The notes under the pieces: generated by a model
The model's database searches: none
Seen by the model: the letters and a program-made list of their open reading frames with translations, nothing else
What the model was told of the DNA's origin: nothing
In this document: positions 19,074 through 58,218 of the stretch, one piece after another
Position numbering within the stretch: position 1 is the stretch's first letter
Layout of the letters: each line of letters starts with the position of its first letter
Assembly (NCBI GenBank): GCA_965219685.1
Contig: CBDCOH010000002.1
Coordinates: 3,648,001 to 3,712,000 of the forward strand
Origin: Candidatus Spongiisociaceae bacterium
GTDB lineage: Bacteria > Actinomycetota > Acidimicrobiia > Spongiisociales > Spongiisociaceae
Direction: 5' to 3'
Length of the DNA: 64,000 bases
Program-made: the position numbers and the translations under genes

Positions 19074-19139
19074 AGTGGTGAGTGGTGAGTGGTGAATGGT
19101 GAATGGTGAGTGGTGAATGGTGAATGGTGAATGGTGAAT
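19074..19139 (+). repeat. Heptamer array A3, right part
   Basis: TGAGTGG/TGAATGG units in phase with the left part once the IS and its TSD are removed. Confidence 0.95.
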
Positions 19140-19196
19140 CTGGATCAACCTGTAAGGGTACTCGGCGGCTTACATCCAACGGGCAACGGGCAACTA
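19139..19196. repeat. Dispersed core motif plus AACGGGC heptamers (copy 1)
   Basis: TCTGGATCAACCTGTAAGGGTACTCGGCGG is 26/30 identical to 55507-55536; followed by AACGGGC AACGGGC AACTAG. Confidence 0.85.
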
Positions 19197-20015
19197 GTAC
19201 AGGGCGGCTTTGATCTGCGCGACGAGGTTTGGGTCCAACTGATGGAAGGTGCTGGCAAGCGCCCACGGACCGTTTATGGAGGCCACGCCCCCGTCGATCG
19301 GGATGACAGCGCCGGTCACGAAGCGGGAACGGGGCGAGCAGAGCCAGGCGACCAGTTCGGCCACCTCGTCGGGGTTACCGATCCTGCGTCCGGGTAGCAC
19401 GGTGTCGTAGAAGCTCAGGTCTGCCGCGCCCAGCATCGGCGTGTCGATCGCGCCGGGAGCGATCACGTTGACGGTGATCTCGTGTTGGGCGAGTTCGGAG
19501 GCCAACGGACGGGCCATGCCCTCCAGGGCCGCCTTGCTGCCCGTGTAGGGGATGTCACCGGCTTGCCCGCGGGCGGCGGCGATCGACGACCACATGATGA
19601 TCCGCCCACCGTCGCCCTGCCCGATCATCTGGCGGGCGGCGTTCTTGACGCAGTAGAGCGTGCCGAAGGTGTTGATGCGGAAGATCCGCTCCACGTCGTC
19701 GTAGTCCATGTCGACGATGCTGTTCCAGCCCGCCCATACGGCGGCCGCGGTGGCCAGGATGTACGCCGGTCCCAGAGAGCTGCCGATCTCGTCGAAGGCC
19801 TCCGCGACCAGGTCCGGGTCCGAGGTGTCGACCGCCAGCGTGAGCATGTCGTCTTCGAGCGTGGCGAGACCGTCGGTGTTCAGGTCGAGGGCCGCCACCG
19901 TCGCTCCTGCTCGATGCAGCCGGAGCGCAGTGGCCCTGCCCTGACCTGAAGCCGCCCCGGTCACCACGGCAACACGCCCGCTGAGATCGAGTACGTCCAT
20001 GTCGGATCCGCCCAT
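19194..20015 (-). CDS. SDR family oxidoreductase
   Basis: TGAASGQG, YTGSK, APGAIDT, IDGG; RBS GGAGGA. Confidence 0.93.
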   Translation of the reverse strand: MGGSDMDVLDLSGRVAVVTGAASGQGRATALRLHRAGATVAALDLNTDGLATLEDDMLTLAVDTSDPDLVAEAFDEIGSSLGPAYILATAAAVWAGWNSIVDMDYDDVERIFRINTFGTLYCVKNAARQMIGQGDGGRIIMWSSIAAARGQAGDIPYTGSKAALEGMARPLASELAQHEITVNVIAPGAIDTPMLGAADLSFYDTVLPGRRIGNPDEVAELVAWLCSPRSRFVTGAVIPIDGGVASINGPWALASTFHQLDPNLVAQIKAALY

Positions 20016-20445
20016 AGGGTCCTCCTGTCGCAACTGGGAAGAGGGTACCCATTATGCGATCAGCGTCCTTCGGGAGGAGCCGTTGTCGCCGGGGTCCAGG
20101 AATCGTTCGCAGCAGACTCCGACGCTCCGGAAATCCTGGAGGCGGAAGGGCGCCTACCCTCCCGACACCGCGAAAAGCGCCCGACGGACCTCTGCCGAGG
20201 GCCCTCCCCCAGCCACCACCTCCGTTGGCTCCGGGCGCGTTCCTCTACTCCTGATGAGGGTCGGCCTGGGCGATCTGATCCCTGCCACGGTCCGTCCGGC
20301 GCCGGGAGACGGACCGTCGGTGTTTACGGCTGCATATCAGTATGCGACATACCTGCGACATGTCAACCCCCCTCTCTGCGGTGTCGACGAGGCACGGCCA
20401 ATCGGTTGACACCTAGGGGTGGGAGTGCTTGGATAACTTGGAAAA

Positions 20446-20459
20446 TGGGAACGTTCCCA
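20446..20459. promoter_or_regulatory. LacI-type operator palindrome
   Basis: Perfect palindrome TGGGAACGTTCCCA upstream of the sugar ABC operon; TTGACA at 20406. Confidence 0.7.
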
Positions 20460-20533
20460 GCCATGGAATGGAGTTCGGTACCGCCTCTCTAGAACGAGTT
20501 CGGAACCCCATTCTCGGAAGAGAAGGAAAGGGT

Positions 20534-21685
20534 ATGAGAAGGGTTGCGACGCATTCTCACGGATCGAGGGTAGGGCGAAGATGGCGAGCGATGGTGATTG
20601 CCGTCGCCTTTGCCATGATCGTCGCGGCTTGCGGGGATGATTCCGCGGAACCTGAAGAGGCTCCTGCAACAACGGCCGCGGCTCCTGCGACAACGGCCGC
20701 GGCTCAGACTACAACAACTGCCGCGCCCACGACGACCGCGGCTCCGGCCACTACTGCCATGGAGGTGAAGGAGTGGCGTGACGGTATTCCTTGCCCGCCC
20801 GAAGGCACGCTCATCGCCTATAGCCCGCTGACACTCGAGTTCGTTTGGTTCGCGGACATCATCACCGCCATGGAGGAGGAAGCGGCCAAGTGCGGCGTCG
20901 ATGTCATCACCGATGACCCCGAAAACGATGCCCAGAATCAGGTAACGAACATCGAGAACATGCTCGAGCGGGGCGTTTCCGCACTGGCGGTAATAACCGT
21001 GGACGAAGTCACGATGGCCCCCGTGGCGGAGCGGGCCCGGGACGACGGCATCATCGTGGTGCGCCATGTCGGCTCGTTGGAGGGATACGACGCCAACGTC
21101 GGGGTTCCCGAGACGGTGTTCGGCGAACTCATCGGAGAGGTCGGCGGCGAGTGGTTGCTCGACGCCAAGCCCGATGCGGCCCCCTACCAGGTGGCGATCC
21201 TCAATGCCGACTCGCTCGGTCCCAATCTGCTCGACCGCAAGCAGGGCCTCAAGGACGGGTTCGATCGCGTCATGGCCGGGGCGGAGTACGAGATAGTGGC
21301 CGACGTCGAGGCGTGGGCGGAGGACACCGCGCTGGACGCTGTAGCTGCGATTCTGGCCGCCAACCCGGACCTCGACGTGATCCTCACGTCGAACGACGTG
21401 GGTGCACTGGGAGGCCTTGCCGCGATCGAGGCGGCAGGCCTCACGCCGAATGTGGACATCGCGATTGTCGGGTCGCTCTTGGAACGGGGGCTCCAGGCGG
21501 TGGCCGACGGAAGGATGCCGGGCGGGATCACCGTCCCGGGTTCCACACACGGGGTGGGCCTGATCGAGGCGTTGTTCCGGTTGCTGGCGGGTGAGGATGG
21601 TGGTTTCAACATGGACATCCCGCCGATCAAGCTGGGCAACGATCCGACCGAGGCCCAGCGGCGCCTGGACGCCGGCGAGTACTAG
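20534..21685 (+). CDS. Sugar ABC transporter substrate-binding lipoprotein (RbsB-like)
   Basis: Lipobox VAAC, Thr/Ala-rich linker, Q...IEN, ANPDLD..SNDVGALG. Start approximate. Confidence 0.88.
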   Translation: MRRVATHSHGSRVGRRWRAMVIAVAFAMIVAACGDDSAEPEEAPATTAAAPATTAAAQTTTTAAPTTTAAPATTAMEVKEWRDGIPCPPEGTLIAYSPLTLEFVWFADIITAMEEEAAKCGVDVITDDPENDAQNQVTNIENMLERGVSALAVITVDEVTMAPVAERARDDGIIVVRHVGSLEGYDANVGVPETVFGELIGEVGGEWLLDAKPDAAPYQVAILNADSLGPNLLDRKQGLKDGFDRVMAGAEYEIVADVEAWAEDTALDAVAAILAANPDLDVILTSNDVGALGGLAAIEAAGLTPNVDIAIVGSLLERGLQAVADGRMPGGITVPGSTHGVGLIEALFRLLAGEDGGFNMDIPPIKLGNDPTEAQRRLDAGEY

Positions 21686-21708
21686 CCGCGAAGCGGAATC
21701 GAGTGGTG

Positions 21709-21740
21709 GAGCCGAATGGGGACCGGTCCCGTTCGGCTCC
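21709..21740 (+). terminator. Intercistronic stem-loop after the binding-protein gene
   Basis: GAGCCGAATGGGGAC-CG-GTCCCGTTCGGCTC imperfect hairpin. Confidence 0.55.
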
Positions 21741-21770
21741 GGCCGCGCTTCGACCCCGTAACGTAGGAAC

Positions 21771-22811
21771 ATGAAGTCCGAAAGGGAGCCCCGAGGCACT
21801 GAGGTTCTCTCCGAACGGAAGCGGGTGGCCCTACGCAGGTTGGTGACCCAAGTTCCGAGGCCGGGAGGGAAGCGTCGCGGCGACTTCTGGAGCCGGTACG
21901 GCATGCCGGCCGCCTTCCTGCTCATTGTTGTGGCGTTCACCAGCCAGTCCGACGCCTTCCTCACACTCTCCAACAGCCAGAACATCGTCCGGCAGAGCGC
22001 GGTTATCGCCATCGCTGCAATCGGGGTCTCAGCCCTGTTCATAAGCGGTGGCATTGACATAAGCCAAGGGCCGATAATCGCCTTCAGCGGGCTGGCCACC
22101 ATCACCCTGATCAATCTGGGCGTCACCGATTACATAGCGATCCCGATCGCGGTGGCTATGGGAGCGGCCTTCGGGGCGATCAACGCCTTCTTCGCGGAGC
22201 GCGTGAAGATACCGGCCCTCATCGCAACCCTGGGAACCGCGCTCGTCATCCGTGGATCGGCGTTCCTGTGGACGGGCGGGCGGTCGATCGCTCTGGACCG
22301 GGAGGCGGGTGCCGTTCTCAAGTGGCTGGGTCGCGGGCTACTGCTGTTCATTCCTGCGCCGTTCCTGGTGACGTTGCTGGTCGCGGCTGCGGTGGCGACC
22401 GCCTTGAGGTTCACTGTATGGGGGCGCCATACCTATGCGATCGGCGGCAACCAGGAGGCCGCTCGCACGGTCGGCATCAACATAGAGCGACGCCGGACCA
22501 CGGTTTACATCCTCGCCGGGTCCCTCTCCGCTCTGGCGGGCGTCGTCCTGGCGGGCAGGCTTGCCTCGGCGGCCCCCAACGCCGCCACCGGAGCGGAGTT
22601 CGACATCATCACGGCCTCGGTGCTCGGCGGGGTGTCGATCTTCGGAGGTGAAGGAAGGGTGTGGCGAGTCCTGCTGGCCGCCATCCTGCTGGCGTCGCTG
22701 TCCAATGGCCTGGTCCAACTCAACGTGCCGGGGTTCTGGGTGCGGATCGTGACAGGCATCGTCTTTCTGGCCGCTCTCTCCCTCGACCGTCTGCAGAGCA
22801 ACCGCTCATGA
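21771..22811 (+). CDS. Sugar ABC transporter permease (RbsC-like)
   Basis: GGIDIS, IPALIATLG, GRHTYAIGGN.EAAR, VLGG.S..GG.G. Confidence 0.93.
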   Translation: MKSEREPRGTEVLSERKRVALRRLVTQVPRPGGKRRGDFWSRYGMPAAFLLIVVAFTSQSDAFLTLSNSQNIVRQSAVIAIAAIGVSALFISGGIDISQGPIIAFSGLATITLINLGVTDYIAIPIAVAMGAAFGAINAFFAERVKIPALIATLGTALVIRGSAFLWTGGRSIALDREAGAVLKWLGRGLLLFIPAPFLVTLLVAAAVATALRFTVWGRHTYAIGGNQEAARTVGINIERRRTTVYILAGSLSALAGVVLAGRLASAAPNAATGAEFDIITASVLGGVSIFGGEGRVWRVLLAAILLASLSNGLVQLNVPGFWVRIVTGIVFLAALSLDRLQSNRS

Positions 22812-23626
22812 AGCCGAGCCCGGACCAGCCATCGGCCGTGAGCCCCGAGAGCCTTGCGTTCCAAGCCGCGTCCGATACGGCCGAGGTCGAACTGGAGATC
22901 CGGGGGTTGTCCAAGAGCTTCGGGCGGGTCGAAGCGCTGCGGGATGTCACGTTGTCGGCCCGTTCAGGTGAGGTGGTGGGCCTCCTCGGCGACAACGGCG
23001 CCGGTAAGTCGACCCTCGTGAAGTGCCTGGCGGGAACCATCCGACCGGACCGCGGCGAGGTTCTCCTCGACGGCGAGCTGGTCGACATCCAGGATCCGGG
23101 CCATGCTCAGGCACTCGGCATCGAGACGGTCCACCAGGACCTTGCGCTGGTGGAGACACTGGACGTCACCGCCAATCTCTTTCTCAACCGGGAGCTCCGG
23201 AGGCGCGGTCCGATCCTCCGCCGTCTGGGTTGGATGAACGGCCGCGAGATGCGACGGCAAGCCGACGGGCTGCTCGGCACGCTGCGCATCGAGATACCGT
23301 CGATGGATCAACGGGTCGATCTACTCTCCGGCGGGCAGCGCCAGGCGATCGCGGTGGGGAGAGCGGCCGGTTGGGGCCAGAGGGTAGTGTTGCTGGATGA
23401 GCCGGCCGCCGCCCTCGGCGTCGAGCAGACCCAGTTGGTGCTCGACCTGGTGCTCCAACTCCAGCAGCGCAATTTGCTAGTGGTCCTGATCACCCACAAC
23501 ATGGACCACGTAATGGAAGTGTGCACGCGAGCGGTCATCCTGCGTCATGGCCGCGTGGTGGCGGACGTGGGTATCTCCGATGTGACACGAACCGACCTCG
23601 TTCACTTCATTACAGGAGCAGTATGA
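22808..23626 (+). CDS. Sugar ABC transporter ATP-binding protein (single domain)
   Basis: GDNGAGKST, LSGGQRQ, LLDEP, H-loop; ATGA overlap. Confidence 0.95.
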   Translation: MKPSPDQPSAVSPESLAFQAASDTAEVELEIRGLSKSFGRVEALRDVTLSARSGEVVGLLGDNGAGKSTLVKCLAGTIRPDRGEVLLDGELVDIQDPGHAQALGIETVHQDLALVETLDVTANLFLNRELRRRGPILRRLGWMNGREMRRQADGLLGTLRIEIPSMDQRVDLLSGGQRQAIAVGRAAGWGQRVVLLDEPAAALGVEQTQLVLDLVLQLQQRNLLVVLITHNMDHVMEVCTRAVILRHGRVVADVGISDVTRTDLVHFITGAV

Positions 23627-24447
23627 GCAGCCGGACAGCCGAGAAGAGATCGGTCGTCGTAACCGGCGCGGGTCAGGGGATCGGCGCCGCGATCCGTGAC
23701 CGGCTGGCGGCGACCGGGTGGTTCGTGGTGGGGATCGACAACGACCCGGGAGCTTGCGGACTTGCCTCCGAGGCGCTCGGTGCTGCCGGCTCCATGGTCC
23801 ATGGCGACGTGACCGACCGTTCCGTCATCGCCCGGGCCGCACACGTCGCCACCCGGGAACATGCTCTCGGTGGATGGGTGAACAACGCAGCCGTGGCGAT
23901 TCCCGGCACCGCACACGCACCCGACCCGGCCGGGGTGCGCCGCGTGTTCGAGGTCAACCTGGAAGCCGTATTCTGGGGTTGCTCCGAAGCGGTTACCACC
24001 TTCCTGGCCCAGGGCCGGGGAGGTTCGATCGTCAACATCTCGTCGATCCAGGCCCAGACGGCCTTCCCCGGCTGGGCGGCCTACGTCGCGGCGAAGGGCG
24101 GTGTCGAGGGCTTGACCCGCTACATCGCCGTCGAGTACGGACCTGTCGACATACGGTGCAACGCCGTGGCGCCGGGAACCATCCGCACTCCGATGGCGCA
24201 GGACGTAATCGACACGGCACCCGTTCCGGCGGAGATGGAGCGGGCAATGGCGGTCATGCATCCCCTGCTACGGGTGGGCGAGCCTCCTGAAGTCGCACGG
24301 GTAGTGGGTTTCCTGCTGTCGGATGATGCATCGTTCGTCACGGGTCAGATCGTCAACGTCGATGGGGGGGCCACTGCTCGCTGCTACCCGATGCCCTTGG
24401 ACCCCGACGTGGCCGAAGCGCGGAGTCGGCGTGGCGGGTCGGGATGA
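23623..24447 (+). CDS. SDR family oxidoreductase
   Basis: TGAGQGIG, NNAA, YVAAK, VDGG. Confidence 0.93.
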   Translation: MSSRTAEKRSVVVTGAGQGIGAAIRDRLAATGWFVVGIDNDPGACGLASEALGAAGSMVHGDVTDRSVIARAAHVATREHALGGWVNNAAVAIPGTAHAPDPAGVRRVFEVNLEAVFWGCSEAVTTFLAQGRGGSIVNISSIQAQTAFPGWAAYVAAKGGVEGLTRYIAVEYGPVDIRCNAVAPGTIRTPMAQDVIDTAPVPAEMERAMAVMHPLLRVGEPPEVARVVGFLLSDDASFVTGQIVNVDGGATARCYPMPLDPDVAEARSRRGGSG

Positions 24448-24490
24448 ATACGGATCCGACACCCCTTACCGGGGCTCGAAAGGAGCATCC

Positions 24491-24826
24491 ATGAAGTTTC
24501 TGACCAGCGGCTCGGCAGGTCCGTTCCTCGCCCTCGCCGGAATGGTCGGCAGGGACGAACAAGGCGGTCCGGTCGCCGGACTCCTCCCACAGACCGTCAG
24601 GGCGCTCGAGCGCATCGAGTCGGTTCTGGCCGAGCACGATCTCGATCGGTCCCACGTGATCCGGCTGCGTATCTACCTGGTTGACGTATCGGATTGGCCT
24701 TCGGTCCTGGAAGTGCTCACGGAGTGGTTCGGACCCACACTGCCTGCTGCCACGGTTGTCGGGAATGTGACCCTGGTGGAGCCGTGGATGCTCATCGAGA
24801 TAGATACGGACGCCGTCCGGAACTGA
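24491..24826 (+). CDS. Rid (YjgF/UK114) family protein
   Basis: LAGMVG, QT...LERI, PAATVV, LIEID; RBS AAGGAG. Confidence 0.8.
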   Translation: MKFLTSGSAGPFLALAGMVGRDEQGGPVAGLLPQTVRALERIESVLAEHDLDRSHVIRLRIYLVDVSDWPSVLEVLTEWFGPTLPAATVVGNVTLVEPWMLIEIDTDAVRN

Positions 24827-26199
24827 TGTCGCGCCGGGCAAGGATCGGCCTTGTCACACCGAGCTTCAAGCTCTTCGACGAACAGATGCCCGCCTCGTTT
24901 CGTGCCGGACTCGTGGACCGGGCCGAGCGGTTCCGCGCAGAACTCGAGAGCGAGTTCGATGTAGCGTACTGGGGGCTGGTGTCCGACTCCCGCGACGCCA
25001 GGGAGGCTAACGAACACCTCAAAGCCGGCCGGGTAGGAGTCATAGTGGTTGCTCCGACGATGGCGTCTCCGCCGGGCTACACCGAGGAGGCGACCAGCGG
25101 GCTCGACGTGCCGACCGTCATCTGGAACACGGCTTCGACGAGGCGGCTGCCGGCGGGCCTCGATCAGGCGGCGGCGCACGAGGACACGGCTTTTCTCGGG
25201 GCGCTGATGTTCGCCAACACGATGGTCCGCCGCGGAACGACGCCGATCGCGGTCAGCGCCAACCCTGACGACGCCGAACAGGTGCGGCGCGTCATGGAGA
25301 CGGTCAGGGCAGCTGCGGCGGCCGTGGCCCTGCGCAGGGCCAAAGTGATCCGGATAGGGGATCCGATACCCGGCTATACCAATGTGCTGGCAGCCCGGCA
25401 CGAACTCGCCACGCTCGGTGTCACCGAGCACCGCGTCGGCATCGACGAACTCGCCGACGAGTTCGCAGCAGCGGGAGACCGTGGGGCAGGTGAGATCAGC
25501 GACCGAATCGCTGAGCTCGGATGGACCGGCGACGCGGACAGGCGCAGCCGCAGGCTGGCCGCGGCGATCCGACGGCTCGTCGACTCGCTCGACGCGGACT
25601 GCGGTACGGTGAACTGCCACGGACCGTGGTTGAGGTCGTCCCCGGACATCGGGATCGTCGGATGTCTCGGTGTGTCGCTGTGCGCTGCATCGGGCGTGCC
25701 GATGTCGTGCACGGGTGACCTTCCGACCGCGCTCGCGATGAAGCTCGCTCGTGACATCGCCGGAGCGAGCCTCTACTGCGAGATATTCGCATTCGAGAGC
25801 GAGACCCGTCTGGCACTCCTCGCCAACAGCGGCGAGGGCGACCCGGCGACCGGCGACCGCACCCCGCATCTGGAGCCCACTCAGTACTATCCGGGTCTGC
25901 ACGGAAGGGGCACGGCCCTGAGCTTCCCCATTGCAGCGGGTCCAGCGACCCTGGTCTCTCTCACACCCACCGACCGGACCTGGCGTCTCGCCTGCGCGAC
26001 GGGCGAGATCGTCGAGAGCCGGTATCCGGGGCTCGGAGCCCCGAACGGGATGTTCCGTTTCGACGGCGGTGGCCGGGCGGCGATCGACCGATGGCTGACG
26101 GCCGGGCCCGTCCATCACCATGCTCTGGCACCGGGGCGGATTGCCGAGCCACTCGCCGTCGCCGCCCAGGTGCTCGGAGCGGAATACGTGGCGGTCTAG
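24826..26199 (+). CDS. L-fucose/L-arabinose isomerase family protein
   Basis: G.R..IG...PGY, TVNCH, SCTGDL, YCE, NSGEGD, HHHAL. Confidence 0.7.
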   Translation: MSRRARIGLVTPSFKLFDEQMPASFRAGLVDRAERFRAELESEFDVAYWGLVSDSRDAREANEHLKAGRVGVIVVAPTMASPPGYTEEATSGLDVPTVIWNTASTRRLPAGLDQAAAHEDTAFLGALMFANTMVRRGTTPIAVSANPDDAEQVRRVMETVRAAAAAVALRRAKVIRIGDPIPGYTNVLAARHELATLGVTEHRVGIDELADEFAAAGDRGAGEISDRIAELGWTGDADRRSRRLAAAIRRLVDSLDADCGTVNCHGPWLRSSPDIGIVGCLGVSLCAASGVPMSCTGDLPTALAMKLARDIAGASLYCEIFAFESETRLALLANSGEGDPATGDRTPHLEPTQYYPGLHGRGTALSFPIAAGPATLVSLTPTDRTWRLACATGEIVESRYPGLGAPNGMFRFDGGGRAAIDRWLTAGPVHHHALAPGRIAEPLAVAAQVLGAEYVAV

Positions 26200-26205
26200 A
26201 AACGC

Positions 26206-27231
26206 ATGGACCCTGACAGGCTTCGCCTGCTCGAGTCTCCGGAGATCGTCGTCGGTGTCGACCTCGAGCGTGGCTGCGACATCCACCGCATCTCCCGACC
26301 TTCGGGTCGTAACCTGCTGGCGTCCTACGACTGGTCCAGCCCCGCGCCGGCCGCGGCCTCGTACACGTACGGCTCCAGCCGGCTCGATTGGTTGTCGCAC
26401 TATCGCGGAGGCTGGCAGGAGCTCTTCCCCAATTCGGGACACGACAGCCGGCGAGGTCCGGTTCCCCTGCCTTTCCACGGCGAGGTATCAACCCTGCGTT
26501 GGGAGGTGATGACCGCCGGGGTCACGACCCTCCATGCTCGGACCGGCTCGCGCCTCCCGCTGGTGCTCGACAGATGGATGGAACTGGATGGGGACCGGCC
26601 GACTTTGCGGTTGCGCGAACGCGTGGTCAACGTCGGGAACGAGCCGGCCGACTTCGTCTGGGGGCATCACCCGGCGTTCGCCGCCGTGTCGCCAACGCTG
26701 GTCGACATCCCCACGGCGGCCGCCGTCGTCGACCGCGGAGACATGGGTCCGGCCGCCGATCTCTCGCCCGGAGGTGAGGGGCGCTGGCCGTTGCTCCCCG
26801 TAGCTGACGGGGCGCTCGTGGACGTGAGCCGCATGCCGGGACATCCCACCAGCCGACTCGTCTACCTGCCTTCGATCGGCGAAGGATGGGCTGCGGTTCG
26901 GTGGCCCGACGAGGAGACAGGAATCGCCCTGTCGTGGGATGTCAAGACGTTTCCGCACGTCTGGTTGTGGCAGGAGCGCGGAAGCACCGGTTATCCGTTC
27001 TACGGTCGGGCCGCCCTCGTGGCGGTCGAACCCCAGTCGGCCTGGCCGGCGGACGGGCTGGACGGAGCAGTCGAACGAGGCCAGGCCCACCGGCTGGAAC
27101 CGGGTCAGACCATGACGACCGCCCTCGCCGCGTCCCTTTTCCACGCCGACCGGAGACGCGTTACCGGAGTCGCACCCGACGGCTCGGTGTCGGTCGAACA
27201 GATCGCAGGCCCTCACGCTCCGTCCGCTTAG
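26206..27231 (+). CDS. Aldose 1-epimerase/galactose mutarotase-like protein (DUF4432-like)
   Basis: GGWQELFPN, FHGE, WGHHPAF, WLWQE, AVEP. Confidence 0.8.
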   Translation: MDPDRLRLLESPEIVVGVDLERGCDIHRISRPSGRNLLASYDWSSPAPAAASYTYGSSRLDWLSHYRGGWQELFPNSGHDSRRGPVPLPFHGEVSTLRWEVMTAGVTTLHARTGSRLPLVLDRWMELDGDRPTLRLRERVVNVGNEPADFVWGHHPAFAAVSPTLVDIPTAAAVVDRGDMGPAADLSPGGEGRWPLLPVADGALVDVSRMPGHPTSRLVYLPSIGEGWAAVRWPDEETGIALSWDVKTFPHVWLWQERGSTGYPFYGRAALVAVEPQSAWPADGLDGAVERGQAHRLEPGQTMTTALAASLFHADRRRVTGVAPDGSVSVEQIAGPHAPSA

Positions 27232-27351
27232 CCTTGGTCCACCGGGCTAGCGTCCCGAGTCTTGGTTTGCTGTGTTACCGGACCGCGGTGGTCCCGCGAT
27301 CGGCATGGCCGACCGCTTCCGGCGCCCGCGCGGAACGGGCCTTTCGTACGA

Positions 27352-36987: not shown

Positions 36988-37040
36988 TGAGTGGTGAATG
37001 GTGAGTAGTGAATGGTGAATGGTGAATGGTGAATGGTGAG
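36974..37040 (+). repeat. Heptamer array A4
   Basis: About 9.5 units of TGAGTGG/TGAGTAG/TGAATGG; contains the TAG stop at 36985-36987. Confidence 0.97.
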
Positions 37041-37052
37041 GTTCTAACCCAT

Positions 37053-37140
37053 CACGAGCCACCAGCCACCAGCCAGGCCAGAGGCCCTCGGATCCTGATG
37101 CGATGCCCGGTCGCCCCACAAGCCACAAGCCACAAGCCAC
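37053..37140 (-). repeat. Inverted heptamer runs (GCTGGTG / GCTTGTG on the minus strand)
   Basis: CACGAGC CACCAGC CACCAGC, and CACAAGC x3. Confidence 0.8.
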
Positions 37141-50238: not shown

Positions 50239-50246
50239 TCGAAGCG

Positions 50247-51356
50247 ATGACCCGAACCGGCCGGCCACGCCCGGGCATGGCCGAGGCCGACTTGGACACG
50301 CCTGCCTTGGTGGTCGATCTCGATGCCATGGAGCGCAACCTCGATCGGATGGCAGTCGCGGCTCGTGCGGCAGGTGTGGCCCTGCGCCCCCACGTCAAGA
50401 CCCACAAGAGCGTCACCATCGCCCGGATGCAGTTGCAGCGGGGTGCGGTGGGTATCTGCGTCCAGACAGTCTCGGAGGCGGAGGCCATGGTCTCGGGCGG
50501 TATCCGGGATGTCTTCGTCGCCAACGAGGTGGTTGGCGCCGGGAAGCTCCGGCGCCTCGCCAGCCTTGCGCGCGAGGCCACGATCACCGCCTGCGTCGAC
50601 GATCCGGGCAACGTCGACGATCTGGGAAGGGCGGTCCGTCGGGCGGGGTCGTCCGTCGGGGTGATGGTCGAGATGAACACTGCCGATTACCGGGCCGGGG
50701 TGCCGCCAGGCGAACCGCTTCTCCGTCTGGCCGAGCGGGTGGACGCTGCACCGTCTCTCCGTTTCATGGGGATACAGGCCTACAACGGGGTCGCCCAGCA
50801 CATCAGGGATCACTCCGCCCGGCTGGCCGCTACAGAGCACAACACCGCCCTGGTGCAGGAGTCGGTCGACCTGCTGGCCCGGCACGGCATCCCTTGCGAG
50901 GTGGTCAGCGGTGGAGGCACCGGTACCTACAACCTCGAGGCCGCCTCAGAGGTGTACAACGAGATCCAGCCGGGCACCTATGTCTTCATGGACGCCGACT
51001 ACCTGGCCAACCGGGACCGGATAGGAGGCCCGTTCCGGGACTTCGAGGTGAGCCTCTACGTGCTGGCGAGCGTAATGAGCCGCCGGCCCGGGATAGCGAT
51101 CGTCGACGCCGGGCTCAAGGCCATCTCCCTGGGCAACGGTCTACCAATCGTCCAGGGCGGCGGGGCCCATTACAGGAGGTTCGCCGACGAGCATGGGGTG
51201 CTGGCTCCGTCCGACGCCAGGCTTCCGGAGCTAGGAGATCAGGTCTACCTGATACCGGTCAACTGCGACCCGACCGTCAATCTCTACGACCACCTCGCCG
51301 GTGTACGCAACAGTGTGGTCGAGACGGTCATCAGCGTCGACGCTCGTGGCTACTGA
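50247..51356 (+). CDS. D-threonine aldolase/DSD1 family PLP enzyme
   Basis: TPALVVD, RPHVKTHK, GGGTGT, EIQPGTYVFMD, DAGLK, DEHG. Confidence 0.92.
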   Translation: MTRTGRPRPGMAEADLDTPALVVDLDAMERNLDRMAVAARAAGVALRPHVKTHKSVTIARMQLQRGAVGICVQTVSEAEAMVSGGIRDVFVANEVVGAGKLRRLASLAREATITACVDDPGNVDDLGRAVRRAGSSVGVMVEMNTADYRAGVPPGEPLLRLAERVDAAPSLRFMGIQAYNGVAQHIRDHSARLAATEHNTALVQESVDLLARHGIPCEVVSGGGTGTYNLEAASEVYNEIQPGTYVFMDADYLANRDRIGGPFRDFEVSLYVLASVMSRRPGIAIVDAGLKAISLGNGLPIVQGGGAHYRRFADEHGVLAPSDARLPELGDQVYLIPVNCDPTVNLYDHLAGVRNSVVETVISVDARGY

Positions 51357-51462
51357 GACGATCCACAACTCTTTGACCAGCGTCCCCGGGAGGAGGGCTG
51401 CGTAGTGTGCAGGCCCAGGCAGCGATGCCGTCGCTGAAGCGTGGTCGACCTTTCGCTTGCGA

Positions 51463-51669
51463 CTAAAGATCGTCTTCGCGAATGTTCGCCAACTTCATGA
51501 GGTGTCTCTGCAGTCCGCGCTTGAGGCTCGTATTTCGATGCACCGGCACCGAGACACGGATGTTCGTTCCTGGTTTGGTGTAGATGTGGTGACTTCCCTT
51601 TGTGCGCGCCAACTGCCAGCCACGAAGCTCGAGTAGCCGGCAGAGTCGCTTTCCGCTGATTGCCTTCAT
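51463..51669 (-). CDS. hicA: HicA toxin
   Basis: MKAISGK..C.LL...GW...R.KGSHHIY, VPVH, LK.G. Confidence 0.9.
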   Translation of the reverse strand: MKAISGKRLCRLLELRGWQLARTKGSHHIYTKPGTNIRVSVPVHRNTSLKRGLQRHLMKLANIREDDL

Positions 51670-51869
51670 ACGGCGATTTCGACAACCCGCCCTTTGTCTG
51701 AACCACGAGCCCCGCCGACATCGACAGATAGGCAACCCTCAACCGCTTCGTAGAGGTTGATCAACAACTCTTCGAAGGACTCCCCCTGCGTAGCACAACC
51801 AGGGATCGCCGGTACCTCCGCCCAGTAGCCACCCTCTTCTGCTTCATGAACGACGACCGCCAGCTTCAT
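51666..51869 (-). CDS. hicB: HicB antitoxin (short form)
   Basis: VVHEAEEGGYWAEVPAIPGCATQGESFEEL..N..EAV. Confidence 0.92.
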   Translation of the reverse strand: MKLAVVVHEAEEGGYWAEVPAIPGCATQGESFEELLINLYEAVEGCLSVDVGGARGSDKGRVVEIAV

Positions 51870-52085
51870 CTTTTGATCTCCTGTCTGATAGGTCGCCCAC
51901 CCGCCATGCCTGCCGGACCGACTCCGAAGGGTTCCCGGTGATGACCTAGGGCTCAACTCTATCAATGACCGGCGGGTAATCAGCAGGCGTACCGGTCGGC
52001 GCTAGTCGTGGTCGTCGTCAGGTTGCCCGTGACCGCTTGGACCCCTCCCGGAGGGGAGTTCGTGCTCCGGCGCCTCCTAAAACTG

Positions 52086-52116
52086 GTGTGGCTCCCGGAC
52101 GGACCGGGAGCCACAC
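52086..52116 (-). terminator. Intrinsic terminator
   Basis: Perfect 13-bp stem GTGTGGCTCCCGG/CCGGGAGCCACAC followed by CAGTTTT on the minus strand. Confidence 0.8.
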
Positions 52117-52142
52117 TTGGCTATTCGAAATGTTGGGGGGTT

Positions 52143-53507
52143 CTAGCCCTGTGGTTCGTCGCCGTCGGGACCGACGCCGGTGCCGAGCGGGGCGTTGATC
52201 CAGTCCACCAGGTCTTGGCGTTCGAGGAGGCGGTTGAACCAGACTTCCTCGACTTCGTAGTCCTGCCACTCCACGCCTTCGGCGATGTAGCCCTCTTCGC
52301 GTCCCGCTTCGAAACGCTCGGCGACCACGTTGCCGAAATAGGTGATCTCACCCGGCGTGAACATGTAGTCCTTGGCGTCTTCCAGCAGCGGGAAGTAGTT
52401 GAGCTCGGTCATGATGCGGGAGGTCACGATGCCGCCGAGGCTGGTGCCACCGGTCTGGTCCTTGGCCTCCTCGCCGACGAACTCACCCACGATGTCGGGA
52501 TACTCGTCGAGGTAGCGGGAGGCCCGGTACCAGATCGCCAGCGAGCGCAGCACGGTCTCGGGGTTCTCCTCGAGCCAGTCGGCCCGCACGCCCTCGGTCG
52601 AGTACAGGATCGCCGAAGCCCCGAACAGTTCGAGGGGCGCCGCCACTACGTACTCCCCGGCCAGTTCTTCGGAATAGAGCATCCGCGCCTGGGCGGAAAG
52701 GTTGCCCGTGTAGTAGTCCGCCTCACCGCTCAAGTAGCCGAAGTTCATGGCTTCCATGCTCGGGTAGTACCTGAATTCGACGTCCTGCTGGCCCTCGGGG
52801 TCGAAGGTCAGGCCGATGTTCTCCAATAGGGCTCGCTCGAAGGTCGTCGGGAAACCCTCCGTCTTCACGAACTGCTTGCCCCGCATGGACTCGGCGAGTT
52901 CGGCCTTGGCGGCCTCCTCGTCGCCCAACCTATCGAGTGCCTCCTCGTACACCACCGTCTGGCCGGCTCTACCGATCAGCACGAATCCCTGGTACTGGTT
53001 GGTGATCAGGTAATTGCGGTACTCGGGGAACTCCTCGATGATGGTCCCGTAGCAGATCTGGCACGAGAAGAGCATGTCGATCTCGTCGGTCTGCAACTGC
53101 GTGTAGGGGATGCTCACGAACGGGATGATCTCCAGGTCGAGGCCGATCCGCGTGTCCATCCCGATTTCTGCCGCGTACGACCACAGGCGGTCATCGTATG
53201 AGGGGGTTGCGCCGATCCGGATGACCCCGCCCTTAGGCTCGTCGGGTGGAACGGTCAGGTCGATACCCATGTCCTCTTCCATGGGTTCTTCCATCTCCTC
53301 TTCCATCTCTTCTTCCATGGTCTCTTCCATGGCCTCTTCCATGGGTTCTTCTTCCATGGGTTCCTCTTCGACCATGGCAGCCGTCGTGGCAGTTGTCTGC
53401 GGGGCCTGAGTGGTCGCGGGGGCCTCCTCCTCGGCGTCGCCGCAGGCGACCGCCAACATCGCCAGAATGGCTAGTAGGAGTGTTCCTTTCCACCAGCGAT
53501 TGCGCAT
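52143..53507 (-). CDS. ABC substrate-binding lipoprotein (SsuA/NMT1-like, tentative) with EEEPM low-complexity linker
   Basis: Lipobox AVAC, acidic Met-rich repeats, W..ENPE...R.L..W; RBS GGAGGG. Confidence 0.7.
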   Translation of the reverse strand: MRNRWWKGTLLLAILAMLAVACGDAEEEAPATTQAPQTTATTAAMVEEEPMEEEPMEEAMEETMEEEMEEEMEEPMEEDMGIDLTVPPDEPKGGVIRIGATPSYDDRLWSYAAEIGMDTRIGLDLEIIPFVSIPYTQLQTDEIDMLFSCQICYGTIIEEFPEYRNYLITNQYQGFVLIGRAGQTVVYEEALDRLGDEEAAKAELAESMRGKQFVKTEGFPTTFERALLENIGLTFDPEGQQDVEFRYYPSMEAMNFGYLSGEADYYTGNLSAQARMLYSEELAGEYVVAAPLELFGASAILYSTEGVRADWLEENPETVLRSLAIWYRASRYLDEYPDIVGEFVGEEAKDQTGGTSLGGIVTSRIMTELNYFPLLEDAKDYMFTPGEITYFGNVVAERFEAGREEGYIAEGVEWQDYEVEEVWFNRLLERQDLVDWINAPLGTGVGPDGDEPQG

Positions 53508-53683
53508 ATTCCCTCCCTTAGTCTCGGCGGCCCGCGCGCGCTTCTGGCCCGTCGGTCTCCGCCCGCTTGCGCTTATGATGCTTATCGAGGTTCGGCGTGT
53601 CAACAGTTATGCCGGACGTCTCATTGCGGAGTGCCTCCGTTCGGGAGGCTCGCCTCGACTACTAGAAGGTGTGGGAGATGACC

Positions 53684-55426
53684 ATGAGACAGAGGATCAT
53701 GCTCGATGTGCGGGTGCCGATGAGGGACGGGACCCTGCTGTCCGCAGATGTCTACCTGCCGTCAGACGGGGACTGTTTTCCCGTCCTGCTCACCCGGACC
53801 ATCTACAGCAAGGAGAGCTATCCCGAGACCGACGGGGCGCGGCCGAACGGTTACGTGGGCTGGGGGGAACGGTTCATGGAAGGCGGCTATGCGGTTGTGA
53901 TCCAGGACTGCCGGGGCCGCTACGACTCGGACGGGGTCTGGGAGGTCTACGTCCAGGACGAGGACGGTCACGACACCGTGGAATGGCTCGTCCGCCAGCC
54001 CTGGTGCGACGGCAACGTCGGCATGTTCGGTATCTCCTACCTGGGCTTCACCCAGATGCACCCCGCTCCGTTGGCCTCGGAGGGACTCAAGGCCATCCTG
54101 CCGATCGGGGCGACGCCGGACGGTTACGACATGTTCTGGCAGCAGGGCGCATTCCTGATGCAGCAGGCCAGCCACTTCCTCCAGATCGGCCGCCGCACCA
54201 GCCACGCGCAGGGGATGGCCATGCTGGCCGGCCTTCCAGGGGGGACGATGGGGGTGGGTGGCGGCAAGGCCGGTGAGCCCCCCGGCGACCTCTCGTACCT
54301 CTACGAGCGGATGCCTCTCTACTCGGCTTTCGACGAGTACGACGACGTGAAGATATGGAAGGAACTGCTCGACCACAACACGTACGACGCCTACTGGAAG
54401 AAGCGGATCGTGAACGGCCGCTACGACACGATCGAGGCACCCGCCTTCTTCCTGACCGGATGGTGGGACTGCACGGTCCGTCACATGTTCGAGGCGTTCG
54501 AGAACTGGACGCGGCACGCGCAGCCGGAGGCGCGCGCTAAGACCAAGATCATGTGCGGCCCCTGGACCCACACCCGCATCGGGGTGGCCGACTGGGGCCA
54601 GGATGTCCAGTTCGGCCCTGATGCCGAACTGGACATCTTCGCCCTGCATCGCCACTGGTACGACCAGCGCCTCAAGGGGATACCCACCGGTGTCGACGAC
54701 GAGGCCCCACTGCAACTCTTCGTGTGCGGCGACAACGTGTGGCGAGGGGAGTACGAGTGGCCGCTGGCGCGTACCGAATACCGGGAGTTGTTCCTGCACG
54801 GGCAGGGTTCGGCGAATACGCGGCATGGCGATGGCGGCCTCATCTGGGATCCGCCGGCCGGCGAGCAGCCGCCGGACACCTACGTCTACGAACCTTCCGA
54901 TCCGGTTCCGACGGTGGGTGGCCAGGTGGCGTACGTGGACCAGAGCGGACCGCGGGACCGGTCCGCGGTCGAGGAGCGGTCCGATGTGCTCGTCTATACC
55001 GGCGAACTCCTGAGTGCCGATCTCGAATGCACGGGACGGGTGACGGCGGTCCTGTTCGCGGCCTCCTCGGCGCCGGACACCGACTTCACCGCCACGTTGG
55101 TGGACGTGCTGCCCGACGGGAGGGCCATCAATGTCACCGAAGGGATCGTCAGGGCGAGGTGCCGAGGTGGTCGCCAGTCGCCCTCTCTGATCGAGCCCGG
55201 ACAGGTCTACGAGTACCGGATCGACCTGTGGGAGATCTCCTGGGTGTTCAAGGCCAGCCACCGGATCCGCCTAGAGGTGTCGAGCAGCAACTTCCCCCGG
55301 TTCGACCGCAACACCAACCTAGGAGGCGACATCGGCCACGAATCCGGGTTCCGGTCAGCCGACCAGACCCTCTTCCACGATGCAGAACACCGAAGCCGGC
55401 TCGTCCTCCCGGTGATCCCGCGGTAG
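53684..55426 (+). CDS. CocE/NonD family serine hydrolase 4
   Basis: PMRDGTLL, QDCRGRYDS, GISYLG, TGWWD, GPWTH, SSNFPRFDRN. Start 53678 or 53684. Confidence 0.93.
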   Translation: MRQRIMLDVRVPMRDGTLLSADVYLPSDGDCFPVLLTRTIYSKESYPETDGARPNGYVGWGERFMEGGYAVVIQDCRGRYDSDGVWEVYVQDEDGHDTVEWLVRQPWCDGNVGMFGISYLGFTQMHPAPLASEGLKAILPIGATPDGYDMFWQQGAFLMQQASHFLQIGRRTSHAQGMAMLAGLPGGTMGVGGGKAGEPPGDLSYLYERMPLYSAFDEYDDVKIWKELLDHNTYDAYWKKRIVNGRYDTIEAPAFFLTGWWDCTVRHMFEAFENWTRHAQPEARAKTKIMCGPWTHTRIGVADWGQDVQFGPDAELDIFALHRHWYDQRLKGIPTGVDDEAPLQLFVCGDNVWRGEYEWPLARTEYRELFLHGQGSANTRHGDGGLIWDPPAGEQPPDTYVYEPSDPVPTVGGQVAYVDQSGPRDRSAVEERSDVLVYTGELLSADLECTGRVTAVLFAASSAPDTDFTATLVDVLPDGRAINVTEGIVRARCRGGRQSPSLIEPGQVYEYRIDLWEISWVFKASHRIRLEVSSSNFPRFDRNTNLGGDIGHESGFRSADQTLFHDAEHRSRLVLPVIPR

Positions 55427-55506
55427 GTGATGGTGAGTGGTGAGTGGTGAGTGGTGAGTGGTGAGTGGTGAGTGGTGAGTGGTGAGTGGTGAATGGTGAA
55501 TGGTGG
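55427..55506 (+). repeat. Heptamer array A6
   Basis: TGAGTGG x8 then TGAATGG x2, starting immediately after the TAG. Confidence 0.97.
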
Positions 55507-55587
55507 TCTGAGTCAACCTTTAAGGGTACTAGGCGGTACACGACTCACGGGCAACGGGGAACGGGCAACTACCGACTAGCAACCAAA
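55507..55587. repeat. Dispersed core motif plus AACGGGC-type heptamers (copy 2)
   Basis: TCTGAGTCAACCTTTAAGGGTACTAGGCGG, then CACGGGC AACGGGG AACGGGC AACTACC GACTAGC AACCAAA up to the ATPase stop. Confidence 0.85.
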
Positions 55588-58218
55588 TCAGAGGGCGCCG
55601 AAGCGGCGGACCACCCAGCGGCTTGCCAGGACTGTGGCGAAGAAGCCCACCACCAGGCCGGCCAGGAGGAGGATCCACGGGCCGGAGCCGAGTGGCACCG
55701 TACCGAATGCGGTGTTGCCGAACGAGGTGTAGATGATGCCTATCTGGAGGAGGAGGCTCACCGTCACCGAGATCCACAGCCACTTGTTGGTGAAGGGCGG
55801 CATCCGCTCCTGAACCCGGATTACGACCAGGCGCAGGTACTCGTGAATGACGAAGCCGGTGAAGGTTACGGTGCGAGCCGTCTCCAGATCCCAGAGGTCA
55901 AGGGCGACGAAGAAGGTGGCCAGGAGGATGATGGAGACGACCACCCCCACCGAGCCCACCAGGGCCGTCATGGACCGTCCCAACACGGCTCCGTGGCTGG
56001 GAGGTCGCCGCATCGTGTCCTTGGGCGCAGGGTCCACCGCCAAGGCGACCGCCGGCCCCGAATCGGTGACCAGGTTGATCCACAGTATCTGCACGGCGGT
56101 GATGGGGAGGTGGCCGAACACGGTTGCCACCAGGATGACAAGCACCTCCGCGAAGTTGCCGGTCAGGAGGTAGTTCACGAACTTCTTGATGTTGCCGAAG
56201 ATGCGGCGTCCCTCCTCCACCGCCGAGACGATCGTTGCGAAGTTGTCGTCGAGTAGGACCATGTCGGAGGTGTCCCGGGCAACGTCGGTGCCCTTGATGC
56301 CCATGGCGATCCCCACGTCGGCGTTGTGGAGGGCGGGAGCGTCGTTCACCCCGTCGCCGGTCATGATCACCACGTCGTGATCTTCCTTGAGGGCTCTCAG
56401 GATCTTCACTTTGTGGCGTGGTTCGGCCCTGGCGAAGATGTCGGTGCGCTGGATCACCTCTCCGAGTTGGTCTCCCTCCATCTCTTCCAGTGACTTGGCC
56501 TCCACCGTCTCTCCCTTGAGCCCCACTTCCCGCCCGATGGCGGAGGCGGTCAGGCTGTGGTCCCCGGTGATCATCACGACCCGGATGCCGGCTCGACGGG
56601 CGTCTGCAATCGCCTCGGCAGCTTCGGGTCGGGGCGGGTCGCTCATTGCCGCCAGACCGGCGAAGGTGAGGCCCTCCTCGGCGGGCTCGGCGAGGGCTTC
56701 CTGAGGCTTGTAGGCGAGCGCCAAGACCCGAAGGGCCTGACCGGCCAGTGCCCGGTTCTTTTCCACGAGGGCGGATCGCTGTTCTGGCGTCATGGACACC
56801 ACACCCTCGGGCGTGGAGACACGGCCGCAGAGTGGTAGGACGACCTCGGGTGCGCCCTTCGTGAGCATCAAACCGGTCCCGTCGCCCGGATCGTGAACGA
56901 CGACCGACATCATCTTCCGCTCGGAAGCGAAAGGGATCTCGGCGGTCCGGTCGTAGCGTTCAAGCGAGACGCCGGCGCCCTCCGCGAACTCCAGCAGGGC
57001 GGTCTCGGTGGGGTCGCCCATATAGCCGTGGTCCGGATGGCGGTGGGCGTTGTTGCACAGACCCGCCGAGAGCACCGCCATCGAAAGCGGCCCGTCCGTG
57101 ATCCCGGCGGTCAGGTGGTCGGTGTCGATGTCCCCGGCGACGGTGGAGACCCGGCGCACCGTCATCCGCCCTTCGGTGATCGTTCCGGTCTTGTCGCTGC
57201 ATATCACTTGCGCCGCGCCCACGATCTCGACCACGGGCAGGGAGCGCACCAGGGCCTTTCGCTCCAGTATCCGGCGGGTACCGAAGGCCAGCGCCAGAGT
57301 GAGCACCACCGGCAGCCCCTCGGGTACCGCAGCCACCGCCAGCGCCACGGCGGTGATGAAGGTCTCCAGCAGGGACAACTCGCCGACCAGGAGCTGCAGC
57401 CCCGCCACGATGGCGATGAGGATGGCCACGGCCCACCCGATCCGCACAGCCAGCTTGCCCACCTCGCGCTGGAAGACGGTGGACTCGTCGTCTGTGGTCT
57501 GTACCTCCTCCGCGATCTTCCCGACCTCCGTGCCCATCCCGGTGTCCGTCACCATCAGTTTCCCCCGCCCCCGCATCACCACGGTGCTGCTGTAGGCCAT
57601 CGAGGAGCGCTCCGCCAAGATGGCTTCCTCGGCCGAGGGTGCGCTGGTCTTGGCCACCGGCAGGCTCTCACCCGTGAGGGCCGACTCATCCACACGGAGA
57701 TGGGCGCTCTCCAGCAGCCGCCCGTCGGCGGGAACACGGTCGCCCTCCTCCAACAGCACCACGTCGCCGGGGACGACCAGTTTGGCGTCGATCTCTTCCC
57801 GGAGGCCCCCTCTCAGGACCTCGGCGGACAGAGCAGCCAGCTGGTTCAGAGACTCGATTCCCCGGTTGGCCCGGAAGTTCTGAGTGAACCCCAGACCGCT
57901 GTTCAGCACCACGATCAGACCGATGAGCACGGCGTCGACCAGTTGGTCCGAGTCGTCACCCAGGACCGAGACAGCCACCAGCACCAGCGCGGCGGCGAGC
58001 AGCACGATCACCAGCGGGCTCCGGAATTCGTCGAGCAACAACTTGAGAGGAGAAACCGGGGCAGCGCTTACCAGTTGGTTGGGGCCGTGGCTGGAGAGTC
58101 GATCCGCGGCATCCTCCTGCGACAGCCCGCTCGGTGACGAACCGAGCTCCGCTAAAGCCTCATCCACCGAGAGGTTATGCCAGGACGGCCGGGCAGAGTA
58201 TTCACCACCGGACACCAT
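55588..58218 (-). CDS. P-type IIA cation (Ca2+-like) transporting ATPase
   Basis: LTGES, PEGL, DKTGT, KGAPE, TGD, GDGVND. Confidence 0.96.
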   Translation of the reverse strand: MVSGGEYSARPSWHNLSVDEALAELGSSPSGLSQEDAADRLSSHGPNQLVSAAPVSPLKLLLDEFRSPLVIVLLAAALVLVAVSVLGDDSDQLVDAVLIGLIVVLNSGLGFTQNFRANRGIESLNQLAALSAEVLRGGLREEIDAKLVVPGDVVLLEEGDRVPADGRLLESAHLRVDESALTGESLPVAKTSAPSAEEAILAERSSMAYSSTVVMRGRGKLMVTDTGMGTEVGKIAEEVQTTDDESTVFQREVGKLAVRIGWAVAILIAIVAGLQLLVGELSLLETFITAVALAVAAVPEGLPVVLTLALAFGTRRILERKALVRSLPVVEIVGAAQVICSDKTGTITEGRMTVRRVSTVAGDIDTDHLTAGITDGPLSMAVLSAGLCNNAHRHPDHGYMGDPTETALLEFAEGAGVSLERYDRTAEIPFASERKMMSVVVHDPGDGTGLMLTKGAPEVVLPLCGRVSTPEGVVSMTPEQRSALVEKNRALAGQALRVLALAYKPQEALAEPAEEGLTFAGLAAMSDPPRPEAAEAIADARRAGIRVVMITGDHSLTASAIGREVGLKGETVEAKSLEEMEGDQLGEVIQRTDIFARAEPRHKVKILRALKEDHDVVIMTGDGVNDAPALHNADVGIAMGIKGTDVARDTSDMVLLDDNFATIVSAVEEGRRIFGNIKKFVNYLLTGNFAEVLVILVATVFGHLPITAVQILWINLVTDSGPAVALAVDPAPKDTMRRPPSHGAVLGRSMTALVGSVGVVVSIILLATFFVALDLWDLETARTVTFTGFVIHEYLRLVVIRVQERMPPFTNKWLWISVTVSLLLQIGIIYTSFGNTAFGTVPLGSGPWILLLAGLVVGFFATVLASRWVVRRFGAL

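Follow-up and report, generated by a model that had tools for sequence, protein, structure and literature searches.

Heptamer-flanked core repeats with a near-uniform orientation to replication in an Acidimicrobiia genome

Several kinds of short repeated DNA come close to the element described here. The cyanobacterial short tandemly repeated repetitive (STRR) heptamers form comparable long simple-sequence arrays, repetitive extragenic palindromic (REP) sequences and bacterial interspersed mosaic elements (BIMEs) are short non-coding repeats dispersed between genes, often at gene ends and as mosaics of repeat and spacer, and the insertion sequences (IS) of the IS200/IS605 group target the lagging strand. 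The present element lies in a 64,000-nt window (C2:3648001-3712000; positions of five or fewer digits are those of the window) of the 4.42-Mb, two-contig genome of a Candidatus Spongiisociaceae bacterium (G000), where two convergent gene pairs each enclose a heptamer array, a short non-repetitive core and a second heptamer array of opposite strand composition. Such cores lie scattered along the chromosome, and between species an orthologous site may have its core replaced, shortened or missing. Their orientation with replication is nearly uniform, which is an unusual and unexpected result.

Sense-strand, G-rich heptamer arrays of the GGGNATC type have been described within 50 bp of stop codons in Xanthomonas and Nostoc (Rehm et al. 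2015, PMC4692102). The arrays of G000 resemble them in consisting of tandem 7-nt units that occur genome-wide, are over-represented between genes and vary in copy number. They differ in that the units here hold GG and not GGG (the main units, GGTGAAT and GGTGAGT, contain only GG and no GGG tracts), so that, judged from the sequence itself, a quadruplex logic of four G tracts is not applicable, and in that dozens of different, species-specific units are found in this genome; the abstract of PMC4692102 makes no mention of a conserved unique core that is polarised with respect to replication. Heptanucleotides were furthermore found to be the commonest class of long simple sequence repeats (LSSRs) in some bacteria, where they are intergenic and where slippage has been proposed to give rise to them (Mrazek et al. 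2007, as summarised in PMC4679880). LSSRs and STRRs are arrays alone, whereas in G000 a dispersed non-repetitive core is enclosed by arrays whose strand compositions are opposite. With REP sequences and BIMEs the element shares the character of a short, dispersed, non-coding intergenic repeat in a repeat/spacer mosaic, but it has no palindromic REP hairpin, no REP-associated tyrosine transposase (RAYT) or other Y1 transposase, far fewer copies and a strict replication orientation. Orientation biases relative to replication that are specific to the family have been reported for IS (Gomez et al. 2014, PMC3971601). A consistent single orientation relative to the fork is common to such biased families, to IS200/IS605 and to the core; unlike an IS, however, the core unit has neither a transposase gene nor IS ends and measures only ~40-80 nt, and Y1 was not found in the genome. 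Literature searches, judged mostly from listings, yielded nothing on such arrays or cores in Acidimicrobiia. The novelty lies in the families of conserved cores and in the strictness of their replication polarity, the heptamer arrays themselves being a known kind of repeat.

With a confidence slightly above even, we read the core as a lineage-restricted, non-coding interspersed repeat that is non-autonomous and would be copied by what we infer to be a replication-coupled, strand-specific process. A first-pass annotation of the window had offered three guesses, namely a small non-autonomous mobile unit, a bidirectional terminator or an empty cassette-insertion site, and the first of these appears to come closest, because copies of the core are dispersed and sense-strand tails are found genome-wide.

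Core families and their turnover between relatives

Read directly, both loci of the window follow the same order: the stop codon of a plus-strand gene is followed by (GGTGAGT/GGTGAAT)n, by the non-repetitive core, by heptamers of the ACGGGCA type and finally by the stop codon of a minus-strand gene. The two cores (c1, 19139-19168; c2, 55507-55536) are identical at 26 of 30 positions, with four substitutions. This shared core between heptamer arrays, already noted in the first-pass annotation, is borne out by direct reading, by pattern search and by Tandem Repeats Finder (TRF): an 18-nt pattern of the core allowing up to three mismatches matches exactly these two sites of the window (0.03 expected), two or more matches were obtained in 0 of 100 shuffles, and TRF recovers all four arrays. 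The similarity continues for ~10-15 nt past the 30-bp core, up to ...CACGGGCA, and the resulting type of ~40 nt, designated A, occupies the plus strand at 19139..19176 (nhmmer E=1e-15) and 55507..55546 (E=3e-16). A near-palindrome that had been ascribed to the core, ACCTTTAAGGGT, is present in copy 2 only, copy 1 reading ACCTGTAAGGGT. No likeness of the A core to a tRNA or an att site was seen.

A third A copy (c3) lies 300 kb away on the minus strand (C2:3345545-3345574), after (GGTGGTT)n and before ACGGGCA-like sequence. A hidden Markov model (HMM) of the three A copies matches only these three (E<=1e-15), the next match having E=0.82. At five other loci, alignments from a BLAST with array plus core extended over the first 25 nt of the core, and in this way a larger family, designated B, came to light. 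Its layout is (GGTGART)n, sometimes (GTCCGTT)n, followed by a core of ~75 nt that extends from AACTCTTGACGGTACTCG to GGTAGCCGTTCAC, and by (GGCAACY)n. With the B HMM (nhmmer), 36 matches were obtained at E<=0.01 and, after one iteration, 40 at E<=1. All copies have a common layout, in that the phase in which the left array ends does not vary (..GGTG NN AACTCT) and the array on the right is of the GGCAAC type. The two arms are usually not complementary (GGTGAAT versus GGCAACY), so that no long hairpin results. Among 37 aligned copies a GGTA is invariant and several further positions are nearly so; the median identity of B pairs is 67%, and the best pairs reach 91-96% although they are situated at different loci. 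The search with the core across this genome and its relatives that had been proposed as a check thus yielded further copies, and the pair in the window is not a two-copy oddity. With three A copies in this genome, one in the related genome G007 and 36-40 B relatives, the core is a dispersed repeat that slippage alone cannot explain, as had been argued from the two window copies. In a side observation, one B copy (C2:2497474-2497552) seems to be interrupted ~1.5 kb before a piece of the 3' end at C2:2495963-2495993.

A and B have in common a 5' motif (CAAC..T..GGTACT), a 3' end (..TCAC GGGCAAC) and both the phase and the types of their arrays. The A core is probably a B core minus ~38 internal bases, i.e., an internal-deletion derivative, a derivation for which the support from sequence is moderate. 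Independent support for the link comes from G007, which has an A-type core at a site where G000 has a B core.

With respect to the distribution among relatives, a sequence-only model (R1) run on 8 genomes of the genus, with 150 candidates scored per genome, gave 38 matches in G000, 9 in G007, 6 in G002 and 0 in the five other congeners. A BLAST search of 41 genomes (own, genus, family and order) using a B core matched four of them, namely G000, G007, G002 and G004, the match in G004 being of 22 nt and at chance level; in G028 there was no core match. In a wider genome collection, two of nine B-pattern matches were true elements (L059 and L061, the latter being one related named record labelled Acidimicrobiia), and viral contigs gave 0 matches to the B pattern. 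Eleven exact A-pattern matches in metagenome contigs proved to be unrelated sequence lacking arrays, e.g., DnaJ-like CSTCKGTG coding stretches.

When eight core sites of G000 were compared with relatives, four lacked the core (1165342 in G002; 4250716, 1057046 and 1031671 in G007) and four carried another variant, i.e., an A type (723085, G007), AT-rich short forms (343623 and window locus 2) or a 3' remnant (344052), while the flanking genes of the compared sites are 84-93% identical to those of G007. At site 4250716, G007 has a hairpin-bearing segment of 78 nt where G000 has array and core. Since the closest B pairs within the genome are 91-96% identical and orthologous sites differ, copying or homogenisation within the genome outpaces the persistence of orthologous copies.

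Further differences between the two species concern the surrounding DNA. The G007 ortholog of window locus 1 (C32:142235-143441) carries an additional ~1.2 kb, including an open reading frame (ORF), between the two gene tails, and at the ortholog of window locus 2 the downstream genes differ from those of G000; gaps flanked by arrays give the impression of being hot spots for changes in gene content. In addition, a tRNA-bearing segment of ~180 bp (G000 C2:~1031750-1031925) with heptamer arrays at both ends is inverted in G007, which suggests that the arrays mediate small inversions.

Orientation with replication and the proposed spread of the cores

Of the B matches, 38/40 are co-oriented with the replication fork (binomial p=4e-8 against 0.56), as are all three A copies. 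Restricted to the 33 B matches with E<1e-5, 32 or 33 are co-oriented, according to whether one places the terminus at 1.2 Mb (the skew maximum) or at 1.65 Mb. The strand of the cores switches at the origin, between 3455462 (-) and 3481156 (+), the origin being placed by dnaA (C2:3464512-3464988) and by the minimum of the cumulative GC skew (3.40-3.45 Mb), and a second switch lies between 1.60 and 1.75 Mb. As controls, 54-56% of genes, 33/51 tRNA genes, 47/125 core-less GGTGART arrays and 212/452 of all period-7 arrays are co-oriented with the fork, so that the polarity is a property of the cores and not of the arrays or the genes. Given this co-orientation, the strand that carries the GT-rich array is the lagging-strand template.

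The reading favoured here, a non-autonomous interspersed repeat, envisages that the unit would be copied from one array-bearing intergenic site to another, and that this copying would be coupled to replication and confined to one strand at the fork. Candidate routes are a single-stranded intermediate or template switching, for which the flanking arrays may serve as homology. The arrays might subsequently grow and shrink locally by slippage until they reach sequence under selection, such as stop codons and promoters. With miniature inverted-repeat transposable elements (MITEs) the cores share the occurrence of many dispersed copies with presence/absence differences between relatives.

A number of observations weigh against this explanation. 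Apart from one heptamer (GGTGAAY at the left and GTTCAC at the right end of the B core) there is no terminal inverted repeat, no longer element shares the B ends (all nhmmer matches are <=115 nt), and neither a transposase nor a target duplication was found for the core unit. The Y1/HUH transposase family PF01797 gave 0 matches in G000 in a search that found it in 6/14 named control genomes. At four comparisons of filled and empty sites the whole spacer differs, and therefore no clean target-duplication junction is readable. Absence at orthologous sites could equal loss and not gain, likeness among copies could stem from gene conversion instead of transposition, and the rule of orientation might result from selection acting on a function of the host and not from a copying mechanism. 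As to the link between the two families, an HMM of the B core only assigns 2.7 bits to c1 and 2.5 bits to c2 (reached by 1 and 0 of 500 shuffles, respectively) and reports neither c3 nor the A copy of G007, which leaves the A-B relationship moderate.

Gene context, by contrast, speaks for a repeat that is not linked to genes, though the gene calls behind it are crude. According to a gene caller of our own making (3245 genes, 80% of C2), the contexts of 39 cores were 12 convergent, 17 tandem and 10 divergent, the nine contexts that overlapped a called ORF being unreliable. The tie to convergent gene pairs seen at both window loci is only a mild enrichment genome-wide (12/39 versus a baseline of 555/3244 gaps, or 17%; p=0.026). 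The orientation finds support in the closed genome of G002, where the six model matches all lie on the plus strand (at 1.66-2.74 Mb; dnaA at 0.405 Mb) and would be co-oriented with the fork if the terminus is roughly opposite the origin, but G000, G007 and G002 are kin, and G002 is not an independent replicate. A last point against the favoured reading is that the maximum of the GC skew in G000 (~1.15 Mb) lies apart from the core strand switch at 1.60-1.75 Mb, a mismatch reflecting either a recent move of the terminus or a single exceptional B copy (1598331).

A serious rival, if in our view an unlikely one, takes the core to be a cis-acting DNA site of the host that is read in one orientation by a protein or by the replisome, selection keeping the copies co-oriented; examples would be a fork barrier with a permissive orientation, a signal for chromosome organisation or segregation, or a repair signal. 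Such a site would fit the near-absolute orientation, which is independent of the direction of neighbouring genes and which the 6/6 matches of G002 repeat, as well as the invariant and nearly invariant positions of the aligned copies, but it would have to act with only ~1 copy per 110 kb and in only 3/8 congeners (R1 model search), its orthologous sites are often empty or decayed and its median pair identity is poor conservation for an essential site, and no candidate binding protein was identified.

The flanking arrays also invite comparison with genes of the S23p family (PF05635, the 23S rRNA intervening-sequence (IVS) protein family). G000 has two of them (C2:1041196-1041513 and C2:3558603-3558894), each with a GT-rich array upstream and an AC-rich array downstream, one gene being intact and the other broken by a frame change and a TAG. 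The element might consequently be pictured as an emptied or decayed heptamer-armed cassette of this type, with the core as the remnant between the arms. PF05635 occurs in exactly those three of the eight congeners that hold cores (two in G000, one in G007 and two in G002) and was not found in the other five, and 4/5 of its loci (both in G000, 2612132 in G002 and that in G007) lie between GT-rich upstream and AC-rich downstream arrays, the second G002 locus (721484) having GT-rich arrays on both sides. We nevertheless consider this origin very unlikely, given that the three genomes may be one subclade, that the two cassettes of G000, in contrast to the cores, are directed against the fork, and that nhmmer and blastn comparisons of the A and B cores with the five cassettes detected no similarity apart from the arrays.

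Avd, the accessory protein of diversity-generating retroelements (DGRs), is a member of the S23p family. One reverse transcriptase (RVT_1; 339 aa) was found in G000 (C2:102982-103497); its best PADLOC matches are generic RT/UG models, its locus adjoins an ISL3 transposase fragment, and no direct repeats of at least 40 nt were present within 3.5 kb and no S23p gene nearby. It is conceivable, if decidedly speculative and given little credence by us, that the cores spread as single-stranded copies (cDNA or displaced strand) annealing via their heptamer arrays to arrays in the lagging-strand template elsewhere, and the S23p proteins together with the single reverse transcriptase of the genome might supply the machinery. 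If true, such a route would be nature's equivalent of lagging-strand oligonucleotide recombineering and would impose a single orientation with respect to the fork; the heptamer arrays would be portable homology arms making intergenic DNA exchangeable, and the process would account for differences in gene content at array-flanked sites in relatives.

Heptamer arrays, transcription and coding

Arrays were taken from the period-7 rows of TRF, merged and retained from three copies upwards, the 650 rows giving 452 arrays with a total of 22.7 kb, of which 57 lie inside called genes. Among the arrays situated <=30 nt from a stop codon, 175 are GT-rich in the sense of the gene versus 39 that are AC-rich, which extends to the whole genome the earlier statement, made for the window loci, that each gene has a heptamer tail of its own on the sense strand. 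For the 76 GGTGART arrays that follow a co-directional gene, the stop codon is <=3 nt away in 59%. Neighbouring arrays <=200 nt apart are arranged GT-then-AC in 71 cases, AC-then-GT in 0 and in the same sense in 13, and because of this 71:0 pairing the succession of array, core and inverted array can be regarded as a standard frame in this genome. The same frame is also filled by other spacers, such as assorted AT-rich ones or a mini-core, GGAGTTCTAACC, of which there are ~9 copies. One of these lies in the window at 37040-37060, where the segment 36973-37140 reads (GTGAATG)n, mini-core GAGGTTCTAACCCATCAC, and (CACCAGC)n and (CCACAAG)n. At its ~9 array junctions the mini-core often joins an array directly to the reverse complement of that array, which would form a long hairpin, and its orientation is without fork bias (2 co-oriented, 7 against).

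The heptamers themselves differ between species. There are 911 matches to (GGTGART)3 in G000, 6 in G007 and 0 in six congeners, and the heptamer behind the same stop codon at orthologous sites differs from species to species (TGGTGAG, TCGGTTG, TGGCTTG, TCGCTAG). The arrays form a genome-wide system of 7-nt repeats trailing stop codons, and the cores are a separate layer.

Two long (ATTCACC)n arrays of minus-strand sense are present elsewhere in the window (1596-1698 and 2764-2871), the second of which takes up all of the space between two genes of the same direction and stops 14 nt short of the next start codon. The (GGTGGCT)n arrays at window 11623-11655 and C2:~4250560-4250595 contain the octamer GCTGGTGG, which we take to be the Chi sequence of E. 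coli, its presence probably being a coincidence.

The strand composition of the tails allows for a reading at the RNA level, in which the composite is a direction-dependent transcription stop or insulator of the Rho type and the core merely a spacer. C-rich, G-poor unstructured RNA loads Rho. In the transcript of its own gene a tail is C-free and G-rich and would not load Rho, while read from the opposite side it is C-rich and G-free, (AYUCACC)n, and a transcript leaving one gene would thus stop in the tail of the next. The excess of GT-rich sense tails (175 versus 39) and the exclusive GT-then-AC pairing (71 versus 0) are what such an arrangement would predict, Rho is encoded in the genome, and at site 4250716 the replacement of array and core by the hairpin-bearing segment of G007 would agree with it as well. 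Yet both the conserved core and its replication polarity would be left unexplained, and the right arrays of both window copies (ACGGGCA) are not G-poor. We regard a Rho-type stop as a distinctly unlikely account of the composite.

Nothing points to a role of the core as RNA, promoter or intrinsic terminator. Rfam searches of 15 core loci at E<=1 returned only a neighbouring tRNA and sub-threshold chance matches, and the whole window at the gathering score returned only ALIL, inside an IS. RNAalifold on 37 sequences gave 0 pairs, and there were no subterminal hairpins, nor was there a palindromic fold such as an integron attC site would have; a helix scan of the cores found only short G-U-rich helices with one-sided changes, and ten single-sequence folds had z-scores of -1.9 to +2.0, no better than shuffles. 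At both window loci 0 sigma-70-like promoter sites and 0 intrinsic-terminator-like sites were detected. The bidirectional terminator proposed in the first-pass annotation must accordingly be dropped in its intrinsic sense.

Signs of coding are weak. The frame TCT GGA TCA... (SxSTCKGTRR) is open in 4/4 A copies, in which several changes of Arg, Tyr, Thr and Gln codons are synonymous, and the ratio of non-synonymous to synonymous polymorphism (pN/pS) is 0.43 in this frame versus 0.72 in the next, a gap that means little with the same 51 nt of four related sequences. That the core is the gene of a short peptide read in this frame, or of a small RNA, is highly improbable: the copies have no common start codon, B copies carry stops and indels in that frame, the Rfam, RNAalifold, folding and promoter results are those given above, and an expressed RNA gene fails to predict 95% co-orientation, tRNA genes being only 65% co-oriented.

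The two window loci and the wider significance

At locus 1, the upstream gene codes for a class IV aminotransferase (16718..17707, plus strand; ORF with Pfam PF01063, E=3e-40) and ends in a TAG at 17705-17707. The left array begins at this stop codon as (GGTGAGT)6.4 (17706..17750, plus strand; TRF and sequence) and continues as (GGTGART)n at 19074..19138 (plus strand; TRF 19076-19139), the two parts being separated by an IS3-family element of 1323 bp (17751..19073, plus strand) that was identified by HTH_Tnp_1 and rve ORFs and by the ALIL frameshift pseudoknot (18081-18197; 104 bits in Rfam). This IS lies within the array and is not part of the composite element: AGT is duplicated at 17748-17750 and 19074-19076 (3 bp), and excision of the IS in silico restores the array in phase. 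To the right of the core, (CAACGGG)2.6 at 19177..19194 (plus strand; TRF) reads GTTGCCC in the sense of the minus-strand gene and forms the GT-rich tail of that gene, which codes for a short-chain dehydrogenase (SDR; 19194..20033; ORF with PF13561/PF00106).

At locus 2, the upstream gene codes for an S15-family hydrolase resembling X-Pro dipeptidyl-peptidase (53669..55426, plus strand; ORF with PF02129 and PF08530; TAG at 55424-55426), followed by the left array, (GGTGAGT/GGTGAAT)11.6, at 55426..55505 (plus strand; TRF and sequence). The right array (55547..55587, plus strand) consists of (ACGGGCA)3.3 (TRF 55547-55569) and 18 nt of degenerate AC-rich heptamer-like units that extend to the stop codon at 55588-55590 of a P-type cation ATPase gene (55588..58218, minus strand; ORF with PF00122 and related families). 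As had been stated before, the convergent pairs at the two loci are unrelated by Pfam, with aminotransferase IV and SDR on the one hand and S15 peptidase and P-type ATPase on the other.

Two further tandem repeats of the window lie inside predicted coding regions, at 53267-53369 (period 12/24/36 nt) and at 58651-58775 (21/63 nt). They presumably encode peptide repeats, their periods being multiples of three.

Runs of heptamers behind stop codons have long been known from several bacterial phyla without an explanation, and an Acidimicrobiia lineage is now added to the groups in which they are known. The core provides a traceable, non-repetitive marker within such arrays, by which array-flanked segments appear to be copied between loci and are replaced faster than the neighbouring genes diverge. 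As the cores obey a replication polarity that the arrays themselves do not, they offer, through the scoring of their orientation, gain and loss in population data, a handle on whether intergenic repeats of this kind arise as by-products of replication, act as mobile units or represent functional sites.

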